Under the pieces are notes generated by a model. That model worked only from the letters and a program-made list of their open reading frames with translations, did no database searches and had not been told where the DNA came from. Positions 20,940-62,121 of a stretch of DNA of 64,000 nucleotides are shown piece by piece. The stretch's first letter is position 1, and each line of letters starts with the position of its first letter. This DNA is from Longimicrobiales bacterium (GTDB lineage Bacteria; Gemmatimonadota; Gemmatimonadetes; Longimicrobiales; Gaopeijiaceae), in contig OZ241892.1 of assembly GCA_965203485.1 (NCBI GenBank), forward strand, positions 2,496,001-2,560,000, written 5' to 3'. A program made the position numbers and the translations under genes.

Positions 20940-20959
20940 CCCCCCCCCCCCCCCCCCCC
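20940..20959. repeat. Poly-C tract (C20)
   Basis: 20 consecutive C in the divergent intergenic region upstream of mutS. Confidence 0.9.
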
Positions 20960-21040: not shown

Positions 21041-23647
21041 ATGCCACGCGCCGCTACCCTCAACGACACGCCGCTGATGCGGCAATGGCGCGAAGTCAAG
21101 GCGCGCCACAGAGATGCGCTGGTCCTTTTCCGGGTGGGCGACTTCTACGAGCTCTTCTTCGGAGACGCGGAGGAAGGGGCCAAGCTGCTGGGGCTGACCC
21201 TCACCTCGCGCAACAACGGCGGCGCGGGGCGCGTTCCCCTCGCCGGCGTGCCGGCAAAGGCGCTCGACGAGTACTTGGCGCGGCTCGTGCGCCTGGGCAA
21301 GCGCGTGGCCGTCTGCGAGCAGATGGAGGACCCGGCTCAGGCGAGGGGCTTGGTGAGGCGCGAAGTCGTGGAGACCGTCACGCCGGGCACCGTCGTGTCG
21401 GGCGCGCTCCTCGACGCGAAGCGCAACAACTTCGTGGTCGCGCTGGCGCCCGGCCGCGGCGCCGCCGGAATCGCCGCGCTCGACGTCTCGACGGGCGAGA
21501 TGGAGCTGCTGGAGGTGGCCGAAGGCGATCTCGTCGGCGAACTCGACCGCATCGAGCCCAAGGAGCTGCTGCTCCCGGAGTCGGCGGACCAGCTCCTTGC
21601 CGAGGAAGACTGCGCGGGCGCCGTGCTCACGGTGCGGCCGGACTGGGCGTTCGACTCGGAGACGGCCCGCGACGAGCTGGTCCGCCGCTACGGCGTGCAG
21701 TCGCTGGACGGCTTCGGCTTCCAAGCCGGCGACGAAGCGCTGGTTCGGGCCGCCGGCGCGCTGGTCGCCTACGTCGAAGAGGTCCGCCCCGGCTCGGCCA
21801 AGCACTTGCAGGCGCCGAGGATCCAGCGCTCCGGCACCGTGATGACCCTGGACTCCATGACCCGCCGCAACCTGGAACTCGTGGAGCCGCTGCGCCCCTA
21901 CGACGGCGACGAGTGCCTGCTCTCGGTGGTCGACGCCACGGTCACTCCCATGGGCGGACGCCTGCTTCGGGCCTGGCTGCTTCGGCCGCTGCTCGATCCG
22001 GACAAGATACGGAGGCGTCATGCGGCGGTCGCCGAACTCCACGAGTCCACCGAGGCCCGCGAGGGGCTGCGTTCCTGCCTCTCCGGCATCCGCGACCTGG
22101 ACCGGCTCTGCGCCAGGCTCGATTCGGCGCGGGCGGCGCCCAGGGAAGTTCTCGGCCTGGGCCAGTCGCTGCGCCGCCTTCCCGGCCTGCTCGAAGCAGG
22201 CGGCCGACTGGAGAGCCCCGCGGTGGCCCAGCTCGTCGATGCCTTGGACCCGTTGGAGGACTTGGCCGCGCTGGTCGAGCAAGCCATCTCCGAGGACGCC
22301 CCTGCCGCGCTGACCGACGGCGGCGTGATCCGCCGGGGATTCGACGACGATCTGGACGCGCTCCGGGCCGCCTGCGACGGCGCGCGCGACTTCCTCGCCA
22401 CCCTGCAGACGCAGGAGCGCGAGAGAACCGGCATCGCGTCGCTCAAGATCGGCTACAACAAGGTGTTCGGCTACTTCCTCGAAGTCACCAAGCCGAACCT
22501 GGGCCGCGTACCCGACCGCTATGCGCGCAGGCAGACGCTCACCAACGCCGAACGCTTCGTCACGCCCGAACTCAAGGAGTGGGAAGAGAAGGTCTTCGGA
22601 GCGCAGGAAGACATCGCCCGCATCGAAAAGGCCCTTTTCACGCGCGTGCGCGAGCAACTGTCGGCGGCGGTGTCGCGCATCCGCGCCACGAGCCGGGCGG
22701 TGGCCGCGCTCGACGTGCTGGCGGCCCTCGCCGACGTGGCCCGGCGCCGCTCCTACGTGCGGCCGGAGATCACCACGGACTTCGAGCTGGACGTGGAGGC
22801 GGGGCGCCATCCGGTCGTCGAGACGATGGTTCGCGAGAACTTCGTCCCCAACGACATTCGGTTGGACGAGACGGCCCGGATCGCAGTGCTGACGGGGCCC
22901 AACATGGCGGGCAAGAGCACCGTGCTTCGCCAAGTCGGTCTGATCCAAGTGATGGCGCAGACCGGTTCGTTCGTGCCCGCCGGCCGCGCGCGGCTCGGCC
23001 TGTGCGACCGCGTGTTCACGCGCGTCGGCGCGTCCGACAACCTCGTCAGGGGCCAGTCCACGTTCATGGTCGAGATGAACGAGACGGCGGCCATCGTGCA
23101 CGGCGCCACGGCCCGCAGCTTGGTGCTGCTCGACGAGATCGGCCGCGGGACGTCCACCTACGACGGCGTTTCCATCGCTTGGGCGGTGACCGAGCACCTT
23201 CACGACCACGTGCGGGCCAAGGGGATATTCGCCACGCACTACCACGAACTCACGCAGCTGGCCGACCTGCTTCCCGCCGTGAAGAACTTGAACGTGGCCG
23301 TGCGCGAGTCGGGCGACCGAATCCTCTTCCTGCGCCGCCTGGAACCGGGCGGCGCGGACCGCTCGTACGGCATCCAGGTGGCCCGCTTGGCCGGATTTCC
23401 GGCGCAGCTCATCGAACGCGCGAGGGACCTGCTGGCCGAGCTGGAGGGTGCGCGGACGGGAGCGGGCGAAGGACTGGGCCGGGGATCGGGGGCGCCGGAG
23501 TCGCGGGCCGGCCGGGATCAGCTTTCGCTGTTCGTCAGCGAGCATCCCGCGCTGGCCAAGCTGCGCGCGCTGAACCCGGACGAGACGACCCCGCTGGCCG
23601 CGCTGGAACTGCTCCACGCCCTGCGCCGCGAAGTGGTCGGGGGCTGA
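21041..23647 (+). CDS. mutS: DNA mismatch repair protein MutS
   Basis: TPLMRQW, FRVGDFYELF, TGPNMAGKST, STFMVEM, DEIGRGTS, ATHYHEL, SYGIQVA. Confidence 0.99.
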   Translation: MPRAATLNDTPLMRQWREVKARHRDALVLFRVGDFYELFFGDAEEGAKLLGLTLTSRNNGGAGRVPLAGVPAKALDEYLARLVRLGKRVAVCEQMEDPAQARGLVRREVVETVTPGTVVSGALLDAKRNNFVVALAPGRGAAGIAALDVSTGEMELLEVAEGDLVGELDRIEPKELLLPESADQLLAEEDCAGAVLTVRPDWAFDSETARDELVRRYGVQSLDGFGFQAGDEALVRAAGALVAYVEEVRPGSAKHLQAPRIQRSGTVMTLDSMTRRNLELVEPLRPYDGDECLLSVVDATVTPMGGRLLRAWLLRPLLDPDKIRRRHAAVAELHESTEAREGLRSCLSGIRDLDRLCARLDSARAAPREVLGLGQSLRRLPGLLEAGGRLESPAVAQLVDALDPLEDLAALVEQAISEDAPAALTDGGVIRRGFDDDLDALRAACDGARDFLATLQTQERERTGIASLKIGYNKVFGYFLEVTKPNLGRVPDRYARRQTLTNAERFVTPELKEWEEKVFGAQEDIARIEKALFTRVREQLSAAVSRIRATSRAVAALDVLAALADVARRRSYVRPEITTDFELDVEAGRHPVVETMVRENFVPNDIRLDETARIAVLTGPNMAGKSTVLRQVGLIQVMAQTGSFVPAGRARLGLCDRVFTRVGASDNLVRGQSTFMVEMNETAAIVHGATARSLVLLDEIGRGTSTYDGVSIAWAVTEHLHDHVRAKGIFATHYHELTQLADLLPAVKNLNVAVRESGDRILFLRRLEPGGADRSYGIQVARLAGFPAQLIERARDLLAELEGARTGAGEGLGRGSGAPESRAGRDQLSLFVSEHPALAKLRALNPDETTPLAALELLHALRREVVGG

Positions 23648-27851: not shown

Positions 27852-28564
27852 ATCCAGGCCACGCCTCGACGGCAGGCTGGCCGCCCCGCGCATACGTGCG
27901 CCGTATCTGTGGCCGGCTCGCGCTCCAGCTTCCTTTCTTGTTCCCTTTGATTCGCTACGAGAGTTTTCTTAAGAAGAATTGGTCGGCGGGAATGCGAGAT
28001 CTGAGAGAGCTGGCCGATCGAACAGCATCGGTTCCCGGCGTGATCATCGAATGCGGATCGGCTCATTGCGGGTCCGCGATCTACCTGGCGAAGCACCTGA
28101 AGAAGCGAGGCCGCGCTCGTCAACTGTTCGCCTTGGACAGCTATGCCGGCTTTCGGAGGGACGAGCTGGCCCGCGAACGGGCCAACGGAGGTGGGAACAT
28201 CCATGCCTCCGCCTTTGCGGACGCAAGCTTCGAGTATGTTGTCGCCAAACTGCGCAAGCTGAAATTGACGGACAGGATTCGTCCCGTCCAAGGCTTCTTC
28301 CAGGACACCTTGGCGCCGCTTGTCGCCGAGGCGGGACAGGTGGCAATGGCTTTCATAGACTGCAACCTGGAAGAGAGCACGGCATTCTGCGCGGAAACGG
28401 TGTGGAGCCGAATTCCGTCCGGCGGCATTGTCGTGTTCGACGACTACGCGGATCCCGCTTGGGCCGGCGTCGCTAGGGCCGTAGACGCTTTCTTCTTGGA
28501 GCATCAATACGAGATTGCGGATCATGGAATCATGCGGCGGATGTACTATGTCAAGAAACGCTGA
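27848..28564 (+). CDS. TylF/MycF/NovP-like class I SAM methyltransferase, copy 1
   Basis: VIIECGS, ALDSYAGF, GFFQDTL, FIDCN, GGIVVFDDY. TTG overlaps the upstream TGA. Confidence 0.85.
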   Translation: MNPGHASTAGWPPRAYVRRICGRLALQLPFLFPLIRYESFLKKNWSAGMRDLRELADRTASVPGVIIECGSAHCGSAIYLAKHLKKRGRARQLFALDSYAGFRRDELARERANGGGNIHASAFADASFEYVVAKLRKLKLTDRIRPVQGFFQDTLAPLVAEAGQVAMAFIDCNLEESTAFCAETVWSRIPSGGIVVFDDYADPAWAGVARAVDAFFLEHQYEIADHGIMRRMYYVKKR

Positions 28565-28681
28565 ACTAGGCGGGGACGCTCTGAACGGCGTGCTGGAACA
28601 AGATCTCTGCGTGCAACATGGGATCCTTCACCGATTCCAAGCACGCGTTGCCGGGCCACCTGTCGCGCCGGGAAAGACGGA

Positions 28682-29365
28682 TTGAGCGCGGCCGCGGCCC
28701 CCCTATCGAGAAAGCGCCGGTTGCTGTTGCGGTTTCCCTTCTTGTATTCTTTGCCATCGGTTCGCTACGAAAGCAACTTGAAGGGCGTCGGCTTGCGAGA
28801 CATGTATGAACTGGCCGATCGCGTGACCTCGCTTCCCGGTGTGATCATCGAATGCGGATCGGCTCGCTGCGGATCCGCGATCTACCTGGCGAAGCACCTG
28901 AAAAAGCGAGGCCGCGCTCGTCAACTGTTCGCCTTGGACAGCTACGCCGGCTTTCGGAGGGACGAGCTGGCCCGCGAACGGGCCAAGGGACTTGCGAGCG
29001 TCCCCGACTGCACGTTCACCAACACGAGCTTCGAGTATGTTGTCGCCAAACTGCGCAAGCTGAACTTGACGGACAGGATTCGTCCCGTCCAAGGCTTCTT
29101 CCAGGACACCTTGGCGCCGCTTGTCGCCGAGGTGGGACAGGTGGCAATGGCCTTCATAGACTGCGACCTGGAAGAGAGCATGAGATTCTGCGCGGAAACG
29201 GTGTGGAGCCGAATTCCGTCCGGCGGCATTGTCGCGTTCGACGACTACGCCGAGCCGACCTTTCCAGGAAGCAAGCTGGCCATAGACGCCTTTGTTGCCG
29301 AGCGCCAACGCGAAATCGCGGATCATGGGCTCATGACCCGATTGTACTATGTGGAGAAGCGCTGA
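28682..29365 (+). CDS. TylF/MycF/NovP-like class I SAM methyltransferase, copy 2
   Basis: Same motifs with FIDCD; long near-identical DNA blocks offset 801 nt from copy 1. Confidence 0.85.
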   Translation: MSAAAAPLSRKRRLLLRFPFLYSLPSVRYESNLKGVGLRDMYELADRVTSLPGVIIECGSARCGSAIYLAKHLKKRGRARQLFALDSYAGFRRDELARERAKGLASVPDCTFTNTSFEYVVAKLRKLNLTDRIRPVQGFFQDTLAPLVAEVGQVAMAFIDCDLEESMRFCAETVWSRIPSGGIVAFDDYAEPTFPGSKLAIDAFVAERQREIADHGLMTRLYYVEKR

Positions 29366-30777: not shown

Positions 30778-32001
30778 ATGGCCAAGTACATCCGCCGCGC
30801 CCTCGAACGGACGCTCGCCCAGGCCGCCTCGGAGTTTCCGGCAGTCGTCGTCACCGGACCGCGACAGTCGGGCAAGACTACGCTCCTCAGGCGATGGGCC
30901 GGAGGCGACTACGGGTACGTTTCGCTGGAGCTGCCCGACGTTCGCGCCGTCGCAACCGAAGACCCGCGAACGTTCCTGGCCCGGCATCTGCCGCCGGTGA
31001 TCTTCGACGAGGTCCAATGGGCGCCCGAACTCCTCTTCTACGTGAAGGAGCGGATTGACGAGCACCGGGACGAGCCGGGGCAGTTCCTGCTCACCGGCTC
31101 GCAAGACCTGCTTCTGACCGCGCAGGTCGCCGAGTCCTTGGCTGGACGCGCGGCCGTGCTTCGTCTGCTGCCCCTGTCAAGGCGGGAAGCCGAGCCGGGC
31201 CGACTGCATGCGCCCTTTCTCTGGGAGGCCGAAGAAGCCACGGGCCCAGGCGGTGCCGCGACGCCGACCGAGCTTTGGCGCGAGTTCCTCCGCGGCTGCT
31301 ACCCCGAACTCGCGGCCAACCCGAGGCGTGACGCTTCGCTGTGGCACTCGGGCTACGTCCAGACCTACTTGGAACGAGACGTCCGCAACCTTCGCCGAGT
31401 CGGAGACCTTTCCCAGTTCCAGAGCTTTCTCCGCGCTCTCGCCGCCCGAAGCGGACAGCTTCTGAACGCAAGCGACCTCGCCCGCGACCTGGGCGTCGCC
31501 ACGAACACCATACGCGCCTGGCTGTCCGTGCTCGAAGCGACTCACCAGATCGCGTTCGTGCGCCCCTACTTCGCCAACATCGGCAAGCGCCTAGTGAAGT
31601 CCCCCAAAGTCTACTTCACGGACACCGGCATCCTCTGTCACCTCACCGGCCTTCGCGATCCGGAGCACGCGGCGGCAGGCCCGATGGCCGGGGCGATCAT
31701 GGAGACCGCTGTGCTCGCGGAGATCCGCAAGACCCTCGCCAACCGCGGCGTCGACGCCCCCATCTACTTCTGGCGCACGGCGACGGGCGTCGAAGTGGAC
31801 TTCCTTGTCCAAGTCGCCGACCAGCTCGTCCCCGTGGAGGTGAAGAAGACGGCGACGCCCCGTCCAGCAATGGCCCGGCCCATACAAGCCATGCAGAAGG
31901 ATCTCGGAGACCGAGCCGGCCACGGCTACGTCGTGCACGCGGGCGCCGGCCGGACGCCGTTGGGCCAAGGGGTCACCGCCGCCGGATTCTCCGAGCTGTA
32001 G
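30778..32001 (+). CDS. AAA_14 ATPase with DUF4143 domain
   Basis: GPRQSGKTT, FDEVQ, LTGS, ESLAGR, YLERDV, KSPKVYFTDTG, EVDF...VEVK. Confidence 0.93.
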   Translation: MAKYIRRALERTLAQAASEFPAVVVTGPRQSGKTTLLRRWAGGDYGYVSLELPDVRAVATEDPRTFLARHLPPVIFDEVQWAPELLFYVKERIDEHRDEPGQFLLTGSQDLLLTAQVAESLAGRAAVLRLLPLSRREAEPGRLHAPFLWEAEEATGPGGAATPTELWREFLRGCYPELAANPRRDASLWHSGYVQTYLERDVRNLRRVGDLSQFQSFLRALAARSGQLLNASDLARDLGVATNTIRAWLSVLEATHQIAFVRPYFANIGKRLVKSPKVYFTDTGILCHLTGLRDPEHAAAGPMAGAIMETAVLAEIRKTLANRGVDAPIYFWRTATGVEVDFLVQVADQLVPVEVKKTATPRPAMARPIQAMQKDLGDRAGHGYVVHAGAGRTPLGQGVTAAGFSEL

Positions 32002-32049: not shown

Positions 32050-32907
32050 CTAGGCGGCCGACCCCTGCCAAGGCGCGTGCTCCAGCGACCGGCGCAATCC
32101 AAGACGGGCAAGGCCTGTGGCCACTTCCCTCACGTCTGCCGGCTGCAGGCGGCCGTTCTCGCGCAAGCGCGCCCTTAAGTGCGACACGATCGCGGCTCGA
32201 GCCTTGGGCTGAGAAATGACGGTCACTTGCTTGACGCCCAACATCGCCAGCGTCTCCCAAGTCTGCCGGTTCACGTGAAGAACGCTGTGGGCCTCGTTCG
32301 CGGATATGTCCGCGCCAGCGACGCGCGCCACTTCTTCTGCCACATGGCCTCGCCACCAAGCGCGAGCAAGCGGGCAATCCGAGAAGACCGAAGTCTTGCC
32401 CCGCACATGGGGAATGCCGCCCGTGTGCCGGAGGAAGTTTCGAGTCTTCGCCTCCAGGTCCGTGCCCCGCCGGCTGCCGAGCGCCGCCTCCAACCGATGA
32501 CCGGCTTGACCGAAGCGTCCTTGTTCAATCCACTCGACGTGGCATAGCAACCAGTACACGGGCCGCGACGCGAACCGGGGCCCTATTAGTCCGCTCCAAG
32601 TCGCCCACAGCTCGCGTTCCAGCTCTACCGGCGGGGTCTGGCACTCGTCGGGCGTCAGCTCGGGGCGCGGTAGTTCCGGCGCACCGATCGCCTTTCTGCC
32701 GGTATGCAGGCTCTTCCTCAGGTAGGCCCCGAGTCCTTCGTGTCCCCCCTTGATCGCCGACTGCAACTCCTCTTGCCGTTCTCGAATCGGCTTCCAGACG
32801 TGCCGGTTCCGTTCTCCCGGCTTGCCGTGGCGCTTTGGTTCGAAAACGATCCCCCGTTGCCAGTTGCTGAACTTCGGACTGGCGGCGTCGATCAGCGCGC
32901 TATTCAC
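32050..32907 (-). CDS. Hypothetical protein, last gene of candidate defence operon (DUF6339-like motif)
   Basis: GTG overlaps the upstream stop, with GGAG RBS. ASRPVYWLLCH and CPLARAWW segments recall DUF6339 (recollection only). Confidence 0.7.
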   Translation of the reverse strand: MNSALIDAASPKFSNWQRGIVFEPKRHGKPGERNRHVWKPIRERQEELQSAIKGGHEGLGAYLRKSLHTGRKAIGAPELPRPELTPDECQTPPVELERELWATWSGLIGPRFASRPVYWLLCHVEWIEQGRFGQAGHRLEAALGSRRGTDLEAKTRNFLRHTGGIPHVRGKTSVFSDCPLARAWWRGHVAEEVARVAGADISANEAHSVLHVNRQTWETLAMLGVKQVTVISQPKARAAIVSHLRARLRENGRLQPADVREVATGLARLGLRRSLEHAPWQGSAA

Positions 32908-33700
32908 CGTCTTCTCCACCCAATGCCGCACGCCACCGGAAGGGCTCAAGCAACGTGGCCACCAAGGCAGGATCGTAGCTCTCCAGATCGTCCCACAAGC
33001 TGATGCCGGGCCGCATGCCTTCCAGGCGGTCGCGAAGCATTCGCGCCAGCGGAAGCTCGTCCTCTTCGTCGTCGCATTGGAACTCGCGTCGAAAGTGCGC
33101 ACAGGCTCCGACGAGCGCGGCGATCCTCACGGGTCGGTCGTCGCGATGCTCGTAGACGTCGGACGCCATGTTGACCACGAAGCGGAAGTGGCCGCTGCCG
33201 TGATCCGGCGCCACTGCCATCCGGCCCCTCTCCAAGTCGTCCGCGTGCCGAAACGTGAACAGCGACTCAAGCAACGCGTTGGCCCGCCACGTGTCTCCCT
33301 TGGCCAACCAGTAGCCGCACGGCACACGAAGCTCGCCGACGCCCTCATAAACGGAACTCAGGCCCGTTGCGTGCAACGAGAGGTCCTTGGTGGCCACGAG
33401 TCCCGGCACGACGAATATGTCGCCGTCCACGTCGTTGAAGTCCCACTTGACGACCTGGCTGGCGTTCGGGGACGTCTCGGTCTTCGCCATGAGGGTCTTC
33501 GGGCAACGGACGTCGACGCCCCAGGCCGCGTCCCCGCTGTCGATCAGCCGTTCCAAGGCCGGGGCCTTCGACAGGCGATGAATCACCGTTGCCTGTCCGG
33601 CGCCGACATTGACGTTGGTCTCGTACGCGGCCTCGGTCCAGTCCATCCGAGAGCCGTCTTCGAGGAGAAGGGGCAGGGAATCGGCGGTGTGGTCAGTCAT
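32900..33700 (-). CDS. Hypothetical protein of candidate defence operon
   Basis: 266-aa ORF overlapping both neighbours by 8 nt; LIDSGDAAWGVDVRCPKT segment. Confidence 0.8.
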   Translation of the reverse strand: MTDHTADSLPLLLEDGSRMDWTEAAYETNVNVGAGQATVIHRLSKAPALERLIDSGDAAWGVDVRCPKTLMAKTETSPNASQVVKWDFNDVDGDIFVVPGLVATKDLSLHATGLSSVYEGVGELRVPCGYWLAKGDTWRANALLESLFTFRHADDLERGRMAVAPDHGSGHFRFVVNMASDVYEHRDDRPVRIAALVGACAHFRREFQCDDEEDELPLARMLRDRLEGMRPGISLWDDLESYDPALVATLLEPFRWRAALGGEDGE

Positions 33701-35633
33701 TGGAGGCTCCGGCGGATTCGGCGGGACAACCGGTCGGCGGATCGGCCGTCCGCCGCCGGACAAGGTCTATTTCCACGGCGTTGGCATCCCGGACGGGATC
33801 GGCGAGGATCACGGCAAAGTCGCGACAGTCCGCAGGCAAATTCGTCTCGAAGCCGTCGTCTCGCGGCCGAGCCACGCCGTCGTCGAACCGAACCTCGGCG
33901 ATGCGAAGCCAAGTCGGCGACAGCGGCGCCTCGCAGGTCTCGTCGGAGCCGGAGGGAACTCGCACCCTGACCCCCAAGTTGTCCTTTGCGGACAAGACTG
34001 CCGTCGGTTGCCAGGCAACGCGTATCTCGTGGATGCTCCCTTCTGCGCCGGGCGCGACCCGCCATGACAGCCGACCCGGCGCGCCTCGCCCCGGCTTGGG
34101 CGCGGCGCCGGCCTTCTGCTTCCGCTTCTTGCCCTTTCTGTCCGGCGGATCGTTCGATTCGTCGTTGTCCGCCTTGCCCATCGCCGTGATGCGCTTCCGG
34201 CCCGTGCCCGCTCGCGGCCGGTACTTCCCCACCCTTTCGGCCCCACGGTTGCCGCCTCCCCACATGGCGAAGTCGCCGGGAGTGTATTCCATGGACTCAT
34301 CTTCCTTGCCGGCCTTCGATCTCAGTTCGTCAGCGATCTGCCGAAGGGCGGCGAGCAGCTTCTTGTTGTCTTCAGAACCGAGCCGGCCCCTGTTCAGGCC
34401 TCGATGCTCCGGCCCTTCGGCATCGCGCACCAGACGCGCCAGTTCGCCCGACTCGACCACAACCACTGCGGCGATGGGCTTGTTCCCCCCAAAATGCCGG
34501 GGTTCCAGTTCGTCGGCATTGTTGGCGATCCACATGCCGCTACGAAACACTTGCACCTGCGACTTCGGCTTGTCGTGTTGCGAGTCCAGGGACAAGACAT
34601 GCGCTTCGGCGCCCGAGGCCAACGCAAACCGTTCTCCCTTCTCGAGCGTTTCCCACGCTTGGTACGCTTGTGCACCCGGGAACCAGCCTCCCTTTTGCTC
34701 GCCCCTCTTCTTAAGCCGGTCGTGTTCGAGAATCGCACCCAACGTGTCTCGGTCGACGACCGTCTCGCTTTCTTCGCCACGACGAATCGTCACCGTCATT
34801 CTTCTCTGCCAGATGGCCACCAAGAAGTTCTTCGCCGCAACGCGGGCGATGGCCGAAACGGGATCGGCGTCGTCGATCCGGAAGTTGTTGAAGCCGGTGA
34901 TGCACACTACGGTGCCCGTGTCGTCGAGGCGGTCGAGTTCGCGAGCGAGCAAGGGCGGCGCGCAGTCGGGATACTTCGCGTCGAAGAGAGACGGGACGCT
35001 GTTCGGGTCCCTGCGGCGAAGCCAGTATCCGTGGCCGCCACGCTTGTCCTTCCTGTACGACGCCAGGATGGCGTGACCGCTAGCCACGTCCCGCAAGCTT
35101 CCGCCAGAATCCCTTGATCGCCCGGCGTACAGCACATAGCGAAGATCCGACGCGGCGAAGGCCGTCAGATGACCCACTCCAAAGGCTCCCGCGCCGACTT
35201 CGTCCTTAGCGGTGTTGCCTTCGGTCAGAACCCTTTCAATGCTTTCGTGGTCAAGTCCTACGCCGTTGTCCCGGCAGAACAAGAGGCGAACGGTCGCCCC
35301 CCCCCCCCCCCCGTTTTTCAAAACTCGCCTAATCCTGTCAATCACCCGCTTCTCCGAAACGCTCTGCTTCCCCTGTTCCCGCTCGGCGACTGCTTGGTCG
35401 AAGTGATCGCGATACGAGTCGATGCCCGGCACCTCGTCCAACGGCACTTCCTTGACGGAGAAGACCACCTCGGCGGTCCGGCGGTCGGCTTCGCCCGCGG
35501 CGTCCAAGGAGTTCTGCAGGAGTTCGCGAACGACGGGCTCCGGGTTGGCGGCCCACTGTGTCGTGGCAAGAGTCGAGAAGCCCTGAACGGGGCCTTCGAA
35601 GTACAGATCGTCCCCGTGAGAGCGAGCAACCAT
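33693..35633 (-). CDS. GHKL (MutL/Hsp90/MORC-like) ATPase domain protein
   Basis: RELLQNSLDA (motif I), DNGVG (II), GAFGVG (III), GTVVCI (IV); large unassigned C-terminal part. Confidence 0.85.
   Translation of the reverse strand: MVARSHGDDLYFEGPVQGFSTLATTQWAANPEPVVRELLQNSLDAAGEADRRTAEVVFSVKEVPLDEVPGIDSYRDHFDQAVAEREQGKQSVSEKRVIDRIRRVLKNGGGGGATVRLLFCRDNGVGLDHESIERVLTEGNTAKDEVGAGAFGVGHLTAFAASDLRYVLYAGRSRDSGGSLRDVASGHAILASYRKDKRGGHGYWLRRRDPNSVPSLFDAKYPDCAPPLLARELDRLDDTGTVVCITGFNNFRIDDADPVSAIARVAAKNFLVAIWQRRMTVTIRRGEESETVVDRDTLGAILEHDRLKKRGEQKGGWFPGAQAYQAWETLEKGERFALASGAEAHVLSLDSQHDKPKSQVQVFRSGMWIANNADELEPRHFGGNKPIAAVVVVESGELARLVRDAEGPEHRGLNRGRLGSEDNKKLLAALRQIADELRSKAGKEDESMEYTPGDFAMWGGGNRGAERVGKYRPRAGTGRKRITAMGKADNDESNDPPDRKGKKRKQKAGAAPKPGRGAPGRLSWRVAPGAEGSIHEIRVAWQPTAVLSAKDNLGVRVRVPSGSDETCEAPLSPTWLRIAEVRFDDGVARPRDDGFETNLPADCRDFAVILADPVRDANAVEIDLVRRRTADPPTGCPAESAGASND
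35297..35312. repeat. Homopolymer G16 (coding strand) inside the GHKL gene
   Basis: 16 C on the + strand, translated as NGGGGGA; frame currently intact. Confidence 0.9.
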
Positions 35634-35646
35634 TTGGCGTCGGTCC

Positions 35647-36954
35647 CTAGTCGGTGCAGTCGCAGGCAGGTGCGCCCGTGGCGTAGCGGCCCAGGTCGGG
35701 CGCGTTCCCCCGGGCAATCTCGGCAAAGGTCGGGCCCCTCACGCCGAAGAAGCCGAATCGCGTGGTCCCCTCGCCGCTGCGCGCGGCCACCTTGCGCTGG
35801 TAGCGCTCCTCCATCTCGATCCACCATCCAATGTCGGAAGGCGCACCGGTTTGCCGCCCGGGGTCGGCCGCGTGGGCGGCCTTCGCAAGAAACCGCGTGC
35901 CCTTCATGAAGCAGAAGACGCAGTTGCCCGCGTGGTCCGGTCCGCCCAAGTCGAAGTTGCGGTCCTTCCAGAAGCCGCGAACCGCAGTGGCGTCGAACCC
36001 CCAGTCCGCCAGCGGAAAGCAGGGATGTTCGCCGGGGGGTTGCGTGTGAACCGAGCAGGACTTGCTGGCGCCCTCCGCGAAGAACGACCGGGAGTTGATC
36101 TTGGCGATGCGCCTGTCCTCGTCGGCGCGCAGGCCCAGCGCCGTCACGTGTTCGGCCGCGCCGGCTCCCCACATCGGCGCTGGGCCGGACGGCGCTTCGC
36201 GGTTCGGGACCGGGGCATCCGTGTAGTCGTGCCAGCGTTGGGCGGGCCGGGCAACGGGACCTCGAGTCATGCACTGCACGCGGTCTCGGTAAGCGTCGTC
36301 CGACGCCGATCCTCGGTTTCGGCGGTACTGGACCAATGCCGAGTCCGGCGTGACGTAGCGACGGTCGCCGTAGTGGCCGGCGTGCTCGGGACCGTCGGTG
36401 GCGCCCAGCCACTCGGAGAGCAGCTGGTGCGACGGATAGAGCTTCAGCTTCGCCGTGCACGACCGGCTGTGAGGGTTGGACAACATGCCCTGGTACGAGA
36501 GCATCTCCTCGAAGACCTCCCCGCTGGACCGAAATCCACGCGGGTCGTCCTCCACGGGCTCGGACCGCACCAGCCGGTACGAAGGACGGCGGACGTAGAC
36601 TCCCCGCGAGGCGTCCTCCACAGTGCAGAACTCGAACCAGAAGAACGGAATGCCGAAGTCGTGCTCGAGGCGGCGCTTGCATTCGCGGGCGAAGTCGTAG
36701 GTGGCCGGATGCTCCGCCGAGGTGTTCGCGAACAGAACGACGTCTCCGCGCTCGGGATCGAGAAGGCCATCCTCCGCCAGCAGGAACGCCAGCGCGGCCG
36801 AAGAGCGTCCGCCCGAAAACTTGACGACGTGCGGAAGCGGCTCGTGCTCGGGGGCGCGCGAGCGGATTGCCCTGGCGCGGGGGACTCGGGCGGGACGGAT
36901 CAAGCGACGGCGACGTGACGTGATGATGGGACCGTGACGAGCGGACAATCTCAA
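35647..36954 (-). CDS. PAPS-reductase-like PP-loop (adenine nucleotide alpha hydrolase) protein (start uncertain)
   Basis: FSGGRSS PP-loop, FANTSAEHPATYDF, CTAKLK, GLRADE..R, FPL, GNCVFC, C-terminal CDCTD. Confidence 0.85.
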   Translation of the reverse strand: MRLSARHGPIITSRRRRLIRPARVPRARAIRSRAPEHEPLPHVVKFSGGRSSAALAFLLAEDGLLDPERGDVVLFANTSAEHPATYDFARECKRRLEHDFGIPFFWFEFCTVEDASRGVYVRRPSYRLVRSEPVEDDPRGFRSSGEVFEEMLSYQGMLSNPHSRSCTAKLKLYPSHQLLSEWLGATDGPEHAGHYGDRRYVTPDSALVQYRRNRGSASDDAYRDRVQCMTRGPVARPAQRWHDYTDAPVPNREAPSGPAPMWGAGAAEHVTALGLRADEDRRIAKINSRSFFAEGASKSCSVHTQPPGEHPCFPLADWGFDATAVRGFWKDRNFDLGGPDHAGNCVFCFMKGTRFLAKAAHAADPGRQTGAPSDIGWWIEMEERYQRKVAARSGEGTTRFGFFGVRGPTFAEIARGNAPDLGRYATGAPACDCTD

Positions 36955-36973
36955 ACGTAGGGCAGGACGCCGA

Positions 36974-38752
36974 CTACGCGCCAGGGCCCGAGACGCCCAC
37001 GGCGTAGTCGAACACGCTGGACGCGCCGATCGCTTCGCGGAACCACACGGTGGCCGTGTTCCCGAGGGCGTCGGTCAGCTTGAGCGGCTCGTTCAGCTGG
37101 AAGACGACGGGCTGCGCGGCCCCGTCGTTGACGGCGACGTTGTCGGCGTGGACGTAGAGGCGGTCGAGCGTGTCGCGAATGGGATTCAGCCTGCCACGAA
37201 TGCCCGGCGCATGTCCCGTGCGGCTCGGGATGATCTTGGAGCCGCCTTCCGCGACGGGACGCATTCGCACTTCCAGGGCGCCACCAGCGTCGTCTCCAGG
37301 CTCGTAGTCCGGCACGACCTCGGCGGCGAAACCCGGCGCGGCGCAAAAAACGGTCATGGGCAAGTTGGCGTAGAGTTCCAAGTCGGCGTGGCCGAAGGCG
37401 TCGGTGCGCGCCTCGAGATAAGTCTTGTTGGGGTAGACCAGGAGGACATCGACGTCGCGGACGGGCTTGCCGGTGTCGGCGTGGACTACCGCCACCCGCG
37501 CCGCGACGCCTTCCGGCACGGGTCGGCGGGCCGCGGGAAGGACCAGCTTCAGCTCGCGCTCGCCGACGAGTTCGAAGACGGGCTTGCGGCCGGCCAGCGC
37601 GAACGTCTCGTCCTCGATCACGGCGATTCCCTCGCCTCTGCGCTCGATGAAGTATTGCCGCCCGCCCGCGCCCGCGACCTCGCCCACGGGACATTGGCCG
37701 AGCCGCGACGCCAAGAGTTCGTTGCGCGTGAACTGGCTGATGCGCATGTCCTCCACCGTCATGGAATTGCCAAGGCCGCCGGGAGAGTGAAGCTCCAGCC
37801 GGTCGTCGAACATGAGCAGGCGTATCTTGGAGCCGGACACGGCGTAGTCGCGGTGGACCACGGCGTTGACCAACGCCTCGAAAACGGCGCGCTCGCTGTA
37901 CTGGGGCACGTCACGGCGCGCAGGCTCCTTGCGGGCGGCCACGCGACGGTTGCGCGCAACGAAGCGCACGGCGCCGCGAATCTGCTGGTCCAGTGGGCCC
38001 GTGATGTCCATGGCGTCGAGCTGCTGGTTGCCGTCCATGCGGTCGCCGCGGTAGCAGACCGCCTGAATGAACGCGTTCGCAAGCCACTCCCGGGGGTCCC
38101 GGCCGCCCAACAGCACGCCTCCCACGGTTGCGCGAAGCACGCCATTGGCATCCTCCTTGGCGAACTTCAGCTTGCTCAGCGCCGTCTCGGGCGGGTCGCC
38201 CGCGCGCGAACTGGCGTAGCCGCGCCACAGCTCCGGATCCAGACTGCCCACGGCCGTGCCCGCAACGACCTGGGTGTCGGTGGACTCCGCGTCCGACTGG
38301 CCGCGCAACTGGGACAGCCGCCGGATTTCCACCGGACCCATGAGACGCTTGCTGCTCCCCCGCCGGCGATAGCATCCCCCCGGCGACTGGTGCACGGCCT
38401 TGCCCGACGCGACGTCCACGACCAGCACCCCGCGGCCGGGCTCGTCCGGAACTGCAACTCGATGCACGCCGACGTCGAGAGGCGGCTTGACGCTGTCGTT
38501 GCAGAGCTCGGTCACGAAGCGGTCCACGGCATCCAGCTCGTCCGGAGACAGCGGCTTCGCCTCCCGCCGGTCGGTGACTCCGAACACCAAGCGGCCGCCC
38601 GAGGAGTTGGCGAACGCCGCCAGCTCGTCGGCAATGAGGTCTCGCACCGACGACGGAACGCGGCCACCCTTCACCGGAACTTCCTTGAACTCGAGCTCGG
38701 AATCCTCTCCAAGCCGGACTTGCCGCCAGAACCGGTCCTCGTCGATGGGCAT
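36974..38752 (-). CDS. Schlafen/AlbA_2 domain + HATPase_c_4 protein with extra C-terminal beta domain
   Basis: GEDSELEFKE, AFANSSGGRLVFGV, EALVNAVVHRDY, DRLELHSPG, RN, ERRGEG; GGAGG RBS. Confidence 0.9.
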   Translation of the reverse strand: MPIDEDRFWRQVRLGEDSELEFKEVPVKGGRVPSSVRDLIADELAAFANSSGGRLVFGVTDRREAKPLSPDELDAVDRFVTELCNDSVKPPLDVGVHRVAVPDEPGRGVLVVDVASGKAVHQSPGGCYRRRGSSKRLMGPVEIRRLSQLRGQSDAESTDTQVVAGTAVGSLDPELWRGYASSRAGDPPETALSKLKFAKEDANGVLRATVGGVLLGGRDPREWLANAFIQAVCYRGDRMDGNQQLDAMDITGPLDQQIRGAVRFVARNRRVAARKEPARRDVPQYSERAVFEALVNAVVHRDYAVSGSKIRLLMFDDRLELHSPGGLGNSMTVEDMRISQFTRNELLASRLGQCPVGEVAGAGGRQYFIERRGEGIAVIEDETFALAGRKPVFELVGERELKLVLPAARRPVPEGVAARVAVVHADTGKPVRDVDVLLVYPNKTYLEARTDAFGHADLELYANLPMTVFCAAPGFAAEVVPDYEPGDDAGGALEVRMRPVAEGGSKIIPSRTGHAPGIRGRLNPIRDTLDRLYVHADNVAVNDGAAQPVVFQLNEPLKLTDALGNTATVWFREAIGASSVFDYAVGVSGPGA

Positions 38753-39297: not shown

Positions 39298-41394
39298 ATG
39301 GCCGCGGCCAAGTCGTTCAAGACGGAGCAGATTCGCAACGTGGTGGTGCTGGGGCACGGCGGGTCGGGCAAGACGACGCTGATCGACGCCGCGTGCTTCG
39401 CCGCAGGCTCGTCCGCCAGGCGAGGGCGGGTCGAGGACGGCGCCGCGCTGACGATGACCACGCCGGAGGAGGCGGCGCACGGGATGTCCATGCAGTTGAC
39501 GGTGGCGCATGCGGTCTGGGAGGGAACCAAGGTCAACTTTCTGGACACGCCGGGCTACATGGACTTCGCGGGAGACGCGGCGGCGGCGGTTCGGGTCGCG
39601 GACGCGGCCCTCGTGCTGGTGGGAGGCGTGGCGGGCGTGGAGGTGGGGACCGAGATGGTCTGGGAACTCTGCGAGGCGGGCGGCCTGCCGAGGATCGTCT
39701 TCGTGTCGGCGATGGACAAGAAGCGCGCCGACTTCGGCAAGGCGCTGCGCGAACTCAAGGAGATTCTCGGGGCGGAACCGCTGCCGCTGCAGTTGCCGGT
39801 CGGGGCCGGCGACGAGTTCAGGGGGGTGGCCGACTTGTTGTCGGGCAGGGCTTGGCTGGCCAAGGCGGGGGCGGGAGCGGCGGACGGCGTTCTGGAGGAG
39901 GCGGACGTGCCCCCCGAGATGGCCGAGGAGGCCGGGAACTGGACCACCGAACTGATGGAGACGCTGGCGACGACCGACGAGGACTTCATGGAGCGCTACC
40001 TGGAGGGCGAGGAAATAGCTCCGGGAGACGTCCTGGGCGTGCTTGCCGCCGCGACGGCGCGGCGCGAGGTCGTGCCCGTGCTCTGCGGATCGGGAGAACG
40101 GGCGGCCGGAGTCCGCGAACTGCTGGCCAAGCTCGTCCGGATCGCGCCCCACCCCGGGCAGAGCGAGGCGGTCGAGGCTACGACGGAAGACGGCCAAGAC
40201 GTCCGGCTCCGCCCGGCCGACGACGAAACCGCCAGCGCCCTCGTCTTCAAGACCAGCGCGGAGCCGCACGTGGGCGAGCTGTCGGTCTTTCGCGTCTTCT
40301 CGGGCATGGTCGCCAACGGCACGGACCTGCGCAACGCCGGACGCAAGGCCGTCGAGCGGCTCAACCACCTGGCGATTCCCTTGGCCAAGGAGCGGCTGGA
40401 GGTCGACAAGCTGCACGCGGGCGACATCGGCGTGGTCGCGAAGCTCAAGTCGACCCACACCAACGACACGCTCTCGTCGCCCGCCAATCCGGTCACCCTG
40501 CCTGGAGTGGCGTTCCCCAAGCCCGACATCTCGGTGGCCGTGCGGGGCGCGGCAAGGGCCGACGAGGACAAGCTGGGCGAAGCGCTCAACCGGCTCCGCG
40601 AAGAAGACCCGACGTTCGTGGCCGAGTTCAACCCCGAGCTGCGCCAGACGATCGCGCGCGGGCTGGGCGAGCTGCACCTGGAAGTGCAGTTCGAGCGCAT
40701 GAAGCGCAAGTACGGCGTGTCGGTCGAGACCGAGCGGCCCAAGATCGCGTACCGGGAGACGATCACGGCCCCGGCCGAGGGACAAGGGCGCTTCAAGAAG
40801 CAGTCCGGCGGGCGCGGACAGTTCGGCGACTGCTGGGTGCGGCTTCGCCCGCGCGCCCGCGGCGAGGGCTACGAGTTCGTGAACTCGATCAAGGGCGGCG
40901 TGATTCCGACCAAGTACGTGCCGTCGGTGGACAAGGGCATCCGGGAAGCGGCGACGAAGGGCGTCGTGGCCGGCTATCCGCTGGTGGACTTCGAGGCCGA
41001 GTGCTACGACGGGTCCTACCATTCCGTGGACTCGTCCGACATCGCGTTCAAGGTGGCGGGCTCGACGGCGTTCAAGAACGTGGCCGAGAAGGCGCGCCCC
41101 GTGCTGCTCGAGCCGATCGTCGAGCTCGCCGTGACGGCGCCGGACGAATACGTGGGCGACATCATGGGCGACCTGAACGGGCGGTCGGCCCGCGTGCTGG
41201 GCATGGAGCCGGCCAGCGGACGCACCACGGTCAAGGCGGAGGTCGCGCAGGCGGAACTCTACAAGTACGCCTCCGCGCTGCGCTCGATCACGCAGGGCCG
41301 TGGGCACCACCGGCGCAAGTTCCTGGGCTACGACGTGGTCCCGGCGGCGCGCGCGGCGAAGATCAGGGCCGAGGCGCAGGCCGAGGACGGTTGA
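39298..41394 (+). CDS. fusA2: Elongation factor G paralog (EF-G2 type)
   Basis: GHGGSGKTT, DTPG, GLGELHL, KKQSGGRGQFGD, DGSYHSVDSS; outside the str operon, with non-canonical switch I. Confidence 0.9.
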   Translation: MAAAKSFKTEQIRNVVVLGHGGSGKTTLIDAACFAAGSSARRGRVEDGAALTMTTPEEAAHGMSMQLTVAHAVWEGTKVNFLDTPGYMDFAGDAAAAVRVADAALVLVGGVAGVEVGTEMVWELCEAGGLPRIVFVSAMDKKRADFGKALRELKEILGAEPLPLQLPVGAGDEFRGVADLLSGRAWLAKAGAGAADGVLEEADVPPEMAEEAGNWTTELMETLATTDEDFMERYLEGEEIAPGDVLGVLAAATARREVVPVLCGSGERAAGVRELLAKLVRIAPHPGQSEAVEATTEDGQDVRLRPADDETASALVFKTSAEPHVGELSVFRVFSGMVANGTDLRNAGRKAVERLNHLAIPLAKERLEVDKLHAGDIGVVAKLKSTHTNDTLSSPANPVTLPGVAFPKPDISVAVRGAARADEDKLGEALNRLREEDPTFVAEFNPELRQTIARGLGELHLEVQFERMKRKYGVSVETERPKIAYRETITAPAEGQGRFKKQSGGRGQFGDCWVRLRPRARGEGYEFVNSIKGGVIPTKYVPSVDKGIREAATKGVVAGYPLVDFEAECYDGSYHSVDSSDIAFKVAGSTAFKNVAEKARPVLLEPIVELAVTAPDEYVGDIMGDLNGRSARVLGMEPASGRTTVKAEVAQAELYKYASALRSITQGRGHHRRKFLGYDVVPAARAAKIRAEAQAEDG

Positions 41395-60027: not shown

Positions 60028-62121
60028 ATGGCAACTCGTCCTCTGACCCCGAAGTACGACGGCCGCCGCGCTCTCGAACTCCTGCGGACGGGCGTCCGAG
60101 ATGGCGGCGCTGTTTTCCGCGAAGGGCAGGAGCAGGCCATCCGACACGTCGTGGAGGGCCGCGGTCGGTTCCTCGTGGTCCAGAAGACGGGGTGGGGCAA
60201 GAGCTTCGTCTACTTCATCGCGACAAAGCTGCTCCGGGAAGCCGGGCGAGGTCCTGCCCTGCTGGTGTCGCCGTTGCTGTCGCTCATGCGCAACCAGATC
60301 AACGCGGCAGCCCGCATGGGCGTCCAGGCCGTCCGGATCGCATCCGACAACAAGCCGGACTGGTCCGAGGTGGAACGCGGGGTCCAGCAAGACGACATCG
60401 ACATTCTCCTGGTCGCCCCCGAGCGACTGCACAACGAGCGGTTCCGGGCCCGGGTCCTGGAGCCTGCAGCCCACCACGTTTCCTTGCTCGTCGTAGACGA
60501 AGCCCATTGCATGTCCGACTGGGGGCACGACTTTCGGCCCGACTACCGGAGAATTGAGACCTTCGTGCGCAGGTTGCCGCCCAACGTCCGCGTCCTGGCC
60601 ACGACGGCTACGGCCAACCGACGCGTAACCGCGGACGTCCGCGACATCTTGGGAACCGACGTCGAGGTGTCCCGGGGCGATCTGAACCGCCCTTCCCTGG
60701 TTCTGCAGACGATCGACCTTCCCGACAAGGCAGACCGCCTTGCTTGGCTGGCGGAGCAGATCCCGCGACTTTCCGGTCACGGCATCGTCTACACGCTCAC
60801 GGTACGAGACGCGGAGCAGGTCGCCTACTGGCTTGCTTCGCGCGGACTGAAGGTAGAGGCCTACACTGGACAGATGGACCACGACCAACGCGAAGCCCTC
60901 GAGGCCGATCTCCTCGACAATCGCGTCAAGGCCGTCGTGGCGACCGTCGCCCTCGGCATGGGGTTCGACAAGCCCGACCTCGAATTCGTCATTCACTACC
61001 AGATGCCGGGCTTCGCCGTGGCGTACTACCAGCAGGTCGGCCGGGCAGGTCGCGCGCGCGACGCCGCCTACGGCATCCTACTGACCGGCAAGGAAGACGA
61101 CGCGATCACAAACTACTTCATCGAGAGCGCGTTTCCCGCACACGACGAGGTTGACCAGGTGCTGGCGGCACTCCAGCACGCCAGCGATGGTCTCTCGCAG
61201 TCCGAGCTGGAAGCGAAAATCAACCTCGACGGCAAGCGCATAGAGAAGGCCGTGGATCTCCTCTCCCTCGAGTCGTCGCCACCAGTGGTGCGGGACGGAC
61301 GCAAGTGGCACCGGAACGCCGCGGTACGGCTCAGTCCCGCGTTTTGGGAGCGGACGGAACGGTTGACCGACCTGCGGCACCAGGAATGGCAACAGATGCA
61401 GGAATACGTGGCGTTGCGCTCCGGCCACATGGCCTTCCTTGTCCGCGCTCTGGACGGAGAACCAAACGCCGCCCAAGAGGCCGAACTCCCTCCGCTCCCG
61501 ACATCCCCCGATCCCGCGTTGCGGAAGGAGGCGGACTCGTTTCTCAAGAACCGGCCTCTTCCAATCAAGCCGCGCAAGCAGTGGCCAGCCGGCGCCAGCA
61601 GGTCGCGTCCGGGCCGAAAGTCCATCGAGACCAAGTATCGTGCCGAGGAAGGCCTGGCTCTGTGCGTATGGAAAGACGGCGGCCACGGAGACTTGGTCGA
61701 GCGGGGCAAGTACGACGCCGAGCGTTATGACGAAGAACTTGTACAAGCATGCGACGACATGATTCGTCGCTGGAACCCCGAGCAGCCGCCCGAGTGGGTC
61801 ACTTGCATCCCCTCCCAACGAAGCGCGGGAGCGCTGGCCGACTTCTCGAAGCGGTTGGCCAACGCGTTGCAACTGCCGTTCAAGGAGGTCTTTGCAAGAA
61901 AGGGCGATCGGCCCGAACAGAAGGCCATGGCCAACACCGCCCACAAGGTTCGCAACGTGATCGACGCGTTCGACGTAGCCGAGCCGCCGATGCCGGGAGC
62001 CGTGCTGCTGGTCGACGACATCGTCGATTCCGGGTGGACGTTGACGGTTGCCGCAGGGTTGTTGCGCAAGAAGGGCAGCGGCCCGGTGCACCCGTGCGCT
62101 CTGGCCACGCTAAGGGCATGA
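60028..62121 (+). CDS. RecQ-family DEAH helicase fused to a C-terminal PRTase (ComF-like) domain
   Basis: TGWGKS, VDEAHC.SDWGHDFRPDY, TATA, GMGFDKPD, QVGRAGR; C-terminal VLLVDDIVDSGWT. Confidence 0.93.
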   Translation: MATRPLTPKYDGRRALELLRTGVRDGGAVFREGQEQAIRHVVEGRGRFLVVQKTGWGKSFVYFIATKLLREAGRGPALLVSPLLSLMRNQINAAARMGVQAVRIASDNKPDWSEVERGVQQDDIDILLVAPERLHNERFRARVLEPAAHHVSLLVVDEAHCMSDWGHDFRPDYRRIETFVRRLPPNVRVLATTATANRRVTADVRDILGTDVEVSRGDLNRPSLVLQTIDLPDKADRLAWLAEQIPRLSGHGIVYTLTVRDAEQVAYWLASRGLKVEAYTGQMDHDQREALEADLLDNRVKAVVATVALGMGFDKPDLEFVIHYQMPGFAVAYYQQVGRAGRARDAAYGILLTGKEDDAITNYFIESAFPAHDEVDQVLAALQHASDGLSQSELEAKINLDGKRIEKAVDLLSLESSPPVVRDGRKWHRNAAVRLSPAFWERTERLTDLRHQEWQQMQEYVALRSGHMAFLVRALDGEPNAAQEAELPPLPTSPDPALRKEADSFLKNRPLPIKPRKQWPAGASRSRPGRKSIETKYRAEEGLALCVWKDGGHGDLVERGKYDAERYDEELVQACDDMIRRWNPEQPPEWVTCIPSQRSAGALADFSKRLANALQLPFKEVFARKGDRPEQKAMANTAHKVRNVIDAFDVAEPPMPGAVLLVDDIVDSGWTLTVAAGLLRKKGSGPVHPCALATLRA

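Follow-up and report, generated by a model that had tools for sequence, protein, structure and literature searches.

A conserved unit of an SspD-like PP-loop enzyme and a GHKL ATPase trio, a candidate phosphorothioate-type DNA writer, in a Longimicrobiales bacterium

Introduction

In the Dnd, Ssp and BREX type 4 systems, the enzyme that inserts sulfur has a P-loop ATPase as its partner. A recent screen for phosphorothioate (PT) systems demanded a P-loop NTPase neighbour (passages of PMC12914056). Here we describe a locus in a 64,000-nucleotide stretch of a Longimicrobiales genome (the window; GenBank assembly GCA_965203485.1, contig OZ241892.1, positions 2,496,001 to 2,560,000 of the forward strand), in which a PP-loop enzyme resembling SspD, G2, is encoded together with a GHKL ATPase, G3, and two further proteins, G4 and G5. 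The ATPase of this unit is of the GHKL type and a P-loop NTPase neighbour is lacking; the screen would therefore exclude such loci. We consider that G2–G5 probably constitute a PT-type DNA writer in which a GHKL clamp scans the DNA instead of a P-loop ATPase and, in this host, sulfur is supplied in trans.

The unit resembles SspABCD-SspE in its SspD-like writer, in a desulfurase located in or outside the operon and in the presence of SspE beside some relatives, but SspB and SspC are not in the operon, where a GHKL ATPase occupies their position together with two unrelated proteins. It shares with DndABCDE and PbeABCD (CxC ABC-ATPase) a PP-loop enzyme with three cluster cysteines and, beside some relatives, DndB, a desulfurase and PbeA/C; however, it has neither the DndD ABC ATPase nor DndE, and G2 is not DndC. 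In BREX type 4 (BrxP/BrxC), a PAPS-reductase-like enzyme replaces the methylase in one scaffold (passages of PMC12914056), whereas the scaffold here is the GHKL trio and not BrxC/Z/L, and no DUF4007 domain was found in G2 by a domain scan. The paraMORC2 GHKL ATPases of restriction-modification (RM) operons have the GHKL+S5 arrangement and the ExxxH motif in common with G3, but are described with methylases, helicases and endonucleases, and the main-text passages of PMC2292703 on which we draw do not contain the term PP-loop. From its sequence, the unit thus appears to work like a PT writer while lying outside Dnd, Ssp and BREX type 4.

PDC-M33 (A, B and C, the last being DUF6339) consists of three genes in the order seen in G3–G5. 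It belongs to a set of 145 candidates that were predicted by embedding and whose study was deferred (passages of 10.1101/2024.01.29.577857); the main text of that preprint does not name M33, and its supplementary Tables S3-8 may annotate PDC-M33. The trio of the window differs in belonging to a divergent clade (support 0.985, midpoint root) that is accompanied by an SspD-like enzyme and not by a C5 methylase. The literature searched, with subscription papers and bioRxiv supplements lying outside the search, revealed no link of the PDC-M33/DUF6339 trio to a sulfur writer; GHKL and MORC are absent from the main-text passages of PMC10853773, and PAPS from those of the Tiamat preprint.

Results

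Properties of the PP-loop enzyme

The genes of the locus, in window coordinates, are as follows.

G2, 35647..36903, minus strand: SspD-like PP-loop enzyme, the proposed sulfur-inserting writer
G3, 33693..35633, minus strand: GHKL+S5 ATPase of the paraMORC2 type, PDC-M33A homologue, the proposed ATP-gated DNA clamp
G16 homopolymer within G3, 35297..35312, minus strand: in frame in the window, candidate phase-variation switch
G4, 32900..33700, minus strand: acidic PDC-M33B homologue, the proposed adaptor
G5, 32050..32907, minus strand: basic, all-helical DUF6339/PDC-M33C-related protein, the proposed DNA-recognition or writer-docking subunit
G1, 36974..38752, minus strand: protein with SLFN_AlbA_2 and HATPase_c_4 domains, an upstream passenger

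A gap of 13 nt separates G2 from G3, and G3/G4 and G4/G5 overlap by 8 nt; the gap between G1 and G2 is 70 nt. The four-gene unit, in frame, is about 4.9 kb long. The five genes have a G+C content (GC) of 0.64–0.69, against 0.70 window-wide. No methylase, DndD/E, SspB/C or desulfurase was found within the G1–G5 cluster by domain and model scans, in agreement with the first-pass annotation of the sequence. Scanning the locus for promoters and terminators gave no signal above chance.

Translation of G2 likely starts at a TTG that is conserved in the close relatives L033, L040 and L053. The match to PAPS_reduct was weak (20.3 bits, under the cut-off of 22.5), and the PADLOC SspD model matched with an E-value of 5.9e-9. 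A profile of G2 aligned over its full length with the true SspD of the host (probability 97.3, E 2.2e-11), with the same motif order. The PP-loop reads SGGRSS, and the other key residues are C149, C328xxC331 and a C-terminal C414xC416; among 65 homologues, C149 is conserved in 65, C328 and C331 in 64, and C414 and C416 in 61. C149 aligns with the cysteine of the DndC RWCT motif and the CxxC with that of SspD; the cluster ligands of DndC are C146, C280 and C283 (passages of PMC12193691). Of the general features of PT writers, the PP-loop and the three 4Fe-4S cysteine positions are present in G2. Homology identifies G2 as an SspD-like PP-loop enzyme that keeps the cysteines binding the 4Fe-4S cluster in DndC.

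QatABCD combines a QueC-like enzyme with a KAP NTPase and TatD. The comparison with QueC and Qat enzymes made in the first-pass annotation does not hold: G2 aligns with SspD, and the Qat and QueC models matched none of the five cluster genes and none of 38 G2 homologues. The DndC model gave no match to G2 either. In the phage collection, the closest matches of G2 were PAPS-reductase-like phage proteins aligned over part of its length; viral contigs contained a single weak G2-like locus and no relative of G3. Members of the G2 family fused to C5 DNA methylases were also found (P0280, P0298 and P0286).

Conservation of the four-gene unit

Scanning genome contigs with a single sequence gave no match, whereas an alignment-based scan gave 97, the best 80 of which yielded 79 GHKL-anchored loci biased to close relatives. 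The trio G3–G5 was present in 75 of these and the trio with G2 in 69; none contained a C5 methylase. From metagenomes we collected 67 partly redundant G2-anchored loci, 52 with at least one trio gene and 41 with all three; the remaining 15 contigs break off next to G2. The carrier loci span GC values of 0.24–0.76 and several gene orders. Pairwise identities of the four genes co-vary (rho 0.86–0.89, 80 loci) and therefore fit the shared descent of a cassette. Within the phylum of the host, G3 was matched in 13 of 301 genomes. The closest relatives are labelled Longimicrobiales, and many other carriers bear names that we take to be those of marine sponge symbionts. The G2-G3-G4-G5 unit is conserved and mobile across several phyla.

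In regards to G1, the gene lies within 100 bp of the core, directly abutting G2, in only 1 of the 79 loci. Two unrelated genes separate it from G2 in the relative L033, and the host has three paralogues with 43–47% identity. G1 was ruled out as a member of the unit on these grounds, and the five-gene unit of the first-pass annotation is reduced to four. Its expectation that the genes should co-occur elsewhere was borne out by G2–G5 (69 of 79 loci) but not by G1.

Six loci (L089, L091, L092, L093, L096 and L097) carry two divergent trios around one G2, and a duplicated or tandemly fused G5 occurs in L024, L025 and L026; both arrangements would fit alternative specificity modules that share one writer. 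In one phylum, a GHKL clade farther removed (L124, L126, L128, L129, L131 and L132) has similar small downstream genes and no detected modifier.

The G3–G5 trio

G3 matched PADLOC PDC-M33A with an E-value of 2.8e-27 over open reading frame residues 65–474. Its AlphaFold model (pLDDT 80) comprises GHKL+S5, a disordered linker and a C-terminal Ig-like beta-sandwich. In the structure comparison (VIA), the best-scoring folds were SMCHD1 (Z 16.5, root-mean-square deviation 5.6, 315 aligned), MutL (Z 15.4) and MORC3 (Z 15.1), and residues 516–631 gave a Z of about 6 to FnIII folds. The ATP motifs are intact, with E37, N41, D122, G126, G152 and G154 conserved, and 121 of 122 homologues have an ExxxH motif (E406 and H410), located in the C-terminal part of S5. 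ExxxH is the signature of paraMORC2 (passages of PMC2292703). G3 has the features of paraMORC2, because it combines the GHKL+S5 fold, intact ATP motifs and ExxxH; by homology it is an intact GHKL+S5 ATPase.

G4 and G5 matched no Pfam or NCBIfam family. G4 matched PADLOC PDC-M33B weakly (E 5.4e-4; 2.5e-6 for the relative L031), its Atlas matches were unnamed clusters only, and a homologue is present in 76 of the 79 loci. G4 and G5 are naturally fused in P0121 and L061. G5 itself gave no direct match to a hidden Markov model (HMM), and its homologues carry PF19866 (DUF6339); its profile aligned with DUF6339 proteins over 224 columns (hhalign; probability 95.7, E 9.2e-9). The predicted model of G5 (pLDDT 94.7) is all-helical, the protein is basic (K+R 43, D+E 29), and the structure comparison (VIA) gave no clear fold match (best Z 6.2, 67 aligned). 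A nuclease identity for G5 was dropped, as neither a fold match nor an Atlas match was obtained, from which the novelty of the fold does not follow. Pfam, NCBIfam and PADLOC scans of G3–G5, with structure comparison of G3 and G5, revealed no family or fold of a nuclease. By homology, G3–G5 appear to be a distant form of the PDC-M33 trio, and the operon, called undescribed in the first-pass annotation, contains a candidate already listed in PADLOC, G3 and G4 being recovered by its HMM scan. These two matches and the G16 tract had escaped the first-pass annotation.

Sulfur supply and PT-type neighbours

A cysteine desulfurase follows G2 immediately in 11 of the 79 loci and is present in 18 of the 67 G2-anchored loci; where in the operon, it overlaps or abuts G2, and one clade has it as part of its operon. 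Elsewhere in the host genome there are genes resembling SspA and IscS. IscS serves dndA-less clusters (passages of PMC3519819). The access to a desulfurase that a PT writer requires would be available in trans in this host.

Genes known from PT systems were found as neighbours among the 79 loci, namely DndB in 5, PbeA in 6 and PbeC in 7. The cut-off of the PT-binding nuclease model NF045808 was exceeded by 4 of the 5 HNH neighbours tested, and DUF262 nucleases also occur beside relatives. When 11 GmrSD-like neighbours were compared with PADLOC models, 2 were true SspE, 1 was a full-length Orf5/HEC-06-like protein and 8 were weakly HEC-05-like. Full-length SspE-type genes stand beside the module in four genomes, two recognised by direct scans (727 and 796 bits) and two by profile. 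These four genomes gave no match to SspB, SspC, true SspD or DndC, TdpC not being among the searches; DndC was likewise unmatched in 9 carrier genomes tested. The activity of SspE requires PT DNA (passages of PMC8092258), and SspE in genomes without a known writer is therefore counted for PT writing by the module. Between G5 and the Pbe genes of five loci (L055, L066, L073, L104 and L105) lies a protein of 600–750 amino acids with sigma70 region 4, weakly MzaA-like.

The operon of the window has no adjacent PT gene and looks modification-only. The first-pass annotation had proposed a restriction-like system built on a non-methyl mark. The relatives point to a sulfur mark, in line with the latter part; the restriction-like part falls away, the operon containing no recognisable nuclease and the effectors being variable neighbours. 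At the separate Ssp locus of the host (L134; G000:C1:363796-375200), which comprises SspA-SspB-SspC-SspD, SspC is shortened and has a G25 tract close to its end; two pieces of a DndB-like gene lie there about 3 kb apart.

Exchange of the modifying partner

In samples of three phyla, PDC-M33A was matched in 5 of 401, 2 of 301 and 12 of 301 genomes, counting the seed genomes. Eighteen PDC-M33A loci were fetched. A C5 methylase was found in 7 of them, a PP-loop enzyme of a second family in 3 and one of the G2 type in 2; the remaining 6 had no modifier. The suggestion that a DNA methylase and a PP-loop enzyme take turns as partner of the trio is supported by this neighbourhood survey (7 of 18 against 5 of 18, with none in 6), and by plasmids, where 3 of the 4 loci opened, out of 17 matches, contained DNA methylases. 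The methylase loci often have their own endonuclease, and in 5 of the 7 the B and C genes were undetected with the profiles used. A methylase and a PP-loop enzyme never occurred together in the 79 and 67 loci. We take DNA to be the substrate because the G2 family is fused to C5 methylases and the alternative partner of the trio is a DNA methylase.

The second PP-loop family is mostly fused to DUF6339 and only distantly related to G2. In a FastTree phylogeny of 122 GHKL domains (156 before removal of near-duplicates; midpoint root, no outgroup), the G2-linked sequences formed one clade (support 0.985) and those linked to the second family nested among methylase-linked ones. This placement suggests that PP-loop enzymes were recruited by the trio on two separate, independent occasions.

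In one low-GC gammaproteobacterial family, the mobile elements L234, L235, L236 and L241 carry three C5-methylase fusions and one unfused copy of a G2 relative near topoisomerase, single-stranded DNA-binding protein, secretin or integrase genes. These relatives possibly serve self-marking to evade host restriction. The Dcm-PP-loop fusions were rejected as part of the trio, since they are located on mobile elements.

Length variation of the G tract

The protein P0125, near-identical to G3, has one glycine fewer at the tract. Tracts of G13 in L033 and G21 in L053 split the gene, and G21 in L040 is in frame at the tract. The contigs of runs X2 and X4 have two additional bases and those of X1 and X3 agree with the window; all four runs are from one study and three from one sample, so error may account for the difference. 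Long homopolymers are error-prone in assemblies, a point that weighs against a biological switch. G/C tracts of at least 11 bases are present in 25 of 72 G2-bearing operons, at differing sites and often just behind an ATG that is upstream of the PP-loop of G2. Their density is 26 in 435 kb of operon and 9 in 876 kb of flank, for which the nominal p of 8e-7 overstates the significance because the relatives are non-independent. The host genome has 44 G/C tracts of at least 11 bases; 12 of these fall within called genes, and of the 11 besides that of G3, 5 are in RM-type or SspC genes. The variation in tract length and the tracts in 25 of 72 operons suggest phase variation, in which slippage of the G16 tract may switch the module on and off. 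Elsewhere in the host genome (G000:C1:2327773-2332599), eight G/C tracts of 20–27 bases occur within 5 kb, mostly outside called genes; a gene for a PT-binding nuclease lies about 4 kb away.

Other genes of the window

The cluster is flanked by two genes.

AAA_14-DUF4143 gene, 30778-32001, plus strand: convergent flank of the G1–G5 cluster
EF-G-family gene, 39298-41394, plus strand: divergent flank of the G1–G5 cluster

The first-pass layout of five minus-strand genes with short gaps or 8-nt overlaps between these two is confirmed by the coordinates. The AAA_14-DUF4143 gene matched PADLOC PDC-S01 (E 1.5e-115) and is unlinked to the unit; the host carries about ten paralogues of it. Two TylF-type methyltransferase genes stand in tandem at 28040-29365, where the relative L033 has one. 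The genes at 60028-63542, in a lower-GC stretch, encode a DEAD helicase that has a weak phosphoribosyltransferase domain and, after it, a DprA/SLOG protein; they resemble a defence pair. A C20 homopolymer (20940-20959) lies about 80 bases upstream of gene 21041-23647, which we take from its sequence features to be MutS-like, and could form a mismatch-repair switch.

Discussion

We infer the complex, its target, its chemistry and any defence role from the domains, residues, gene linkage and neighbours described above. A G3 dimer would close on DNA with ATP, carrying G4 and G5 along, and the three proteins would replace DndD/E, SspB/C or BrxC of the known PT systems. G4 may act as an adaptor, and G5 may read DNA or dock the writer. 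By analogy with PP-loop chemistry, G2 would adenylate the backbone phosphate and then swap in sulfur derived from a desulfurase, which is an operon gene in one clade and would act in trans in this host; for DndC, the adenylation step is treated as open (passages of PMC10853773). The mark would license or shield against effectors nearby or elsewhere, such as SspE, Pbe/CxC, and DUF262 or HNH nucleases in relatives, and slippage of the G16 tract would turn the module on or off.

Several observations weigh against PT writing by G2–G5. The SspD model gave G2 34 bits against 296 for the true SspD of the host, the profile alignment of G2 with DndC was confined to the N-terminal half (probability 70.6), and a search of the G2 profile against Protein Data Bank sequences gave two spurious matches and no solved PP-loop structure. 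The in-operon desulfurases belong to the IscS/DndA group but score below every curated cut-off, including that of DndA. HNH proximity is ambiguous, as PT-binding HNH enzymes cut PT DNA. Among the genomes with SspE, three have it beside the fused second PP-loop family and only G1063 beside the G2 family; in G1063 the SspD model overlooked G2 itself, so that a distant writer could escape detection. Pbe/CxC systems occur without PT genes or with methylases too (passages of PMC10853773). The host has SspABCD at a separate locus and two unlinked copies of the PT-binding nuclease, and gave no match to true SspE, DndC, PbeC or DndE; SspABCD, the nuclease copies and the lack of SspE are the points that count here. 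In 4 of the 8 regions opened in the gammaproteobacterial family, the G2 relative is on mobile elements without the trio; the family is therefore not always tied to it. Finally, the related genomes are non-independent samples.

The distance of G2 from both DndC and SspD also bears on another explanation, which we consider unlikely, that the same GHKL scanner serves to write a different DNA mark, for example by thiolating a base or forming a stable adenylate. PP-loop enzymes with desulfurases thiolate bases too, for example in tRNA (passages of PMC12914056), and the partial alignment of the PAPS-reductase-like phage proteins, the cytosine methylase fusions and the extra C-terminal cysteines of G2 would suit such an activity. 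The SspE, NF045808 nuclease, Pbe and DndB neighbours are nevertheless tied to backbone PT, and the full-length motif order of G2 is that of SspD. We give slightly less credence still to the trio being itself a paraMORC-like defence effector or restriction arm, with G2 marking self DNA without it. ParaMORCs have been proposed to loop DNA for restriction (passages of PMC2292703), no modifier accompanies 6 of 18 distant PDC-M33A loci, and a trio stands beside AbiG on a Lactococcus plasmid; the trio-less G2 relatives on mobile elements and the six loci with two trios around one G2 are also compatible with this explanation, and phase variation would suit a costly effector. However, the lack of a recognisable nuclease in G3–G5, the endonucleases that methylase loci often bring themselves and the fusion of DUF6339 to a PP-loop domain argue against this explanation, and known PT writers require an ATPase partner (passages of PMC12914056). 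A cassette of a defence island whose PP-loop enzyme acts on protein, nucleotide or RNA in a QatC-like manner, with no DNA mark, seems improbable. Defence genes cluster, the PT neighbours could be island effects, and the window has no PT gene adjacent to the operon, but the unmatched Qat/QueC models and the desulfurase that overlaps or abuts G2 speak against it, and both the methylase fusions and the methylase/PP-loop exchange point to DNA.

Returning to G2–G5 as a PT-type writer, we put forward a broader proposal with somewhat less than even confidence. The paraMORC2/PDC-M33 trio may be a chemistry-independent DNA-scanning platform that in some lineages has worked with a C5 methylase and that acquired a PP-loop sulfur transferase on two occasions. 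It would represent a PT class without a P-loop ATPase, left out by the design of published screens, that feeds borrowed PT readers (SspE and Pbe) and is switched by homopolymer slippage; marine symbionts would thereby have a sulfur epigenome subject to phase variation.

If true, a GHKL-driven writer would be a new PT architecture and would explain SspE and Pbe genes in genomes without a known writer. PDC-M33 and DUF6339 would gain a function. For bacterial MORC relatives, the loading of DNA-modifying enzymes would become a role open to testing, with a bearing on how eukaryotic MORCs work with DNA methylation.

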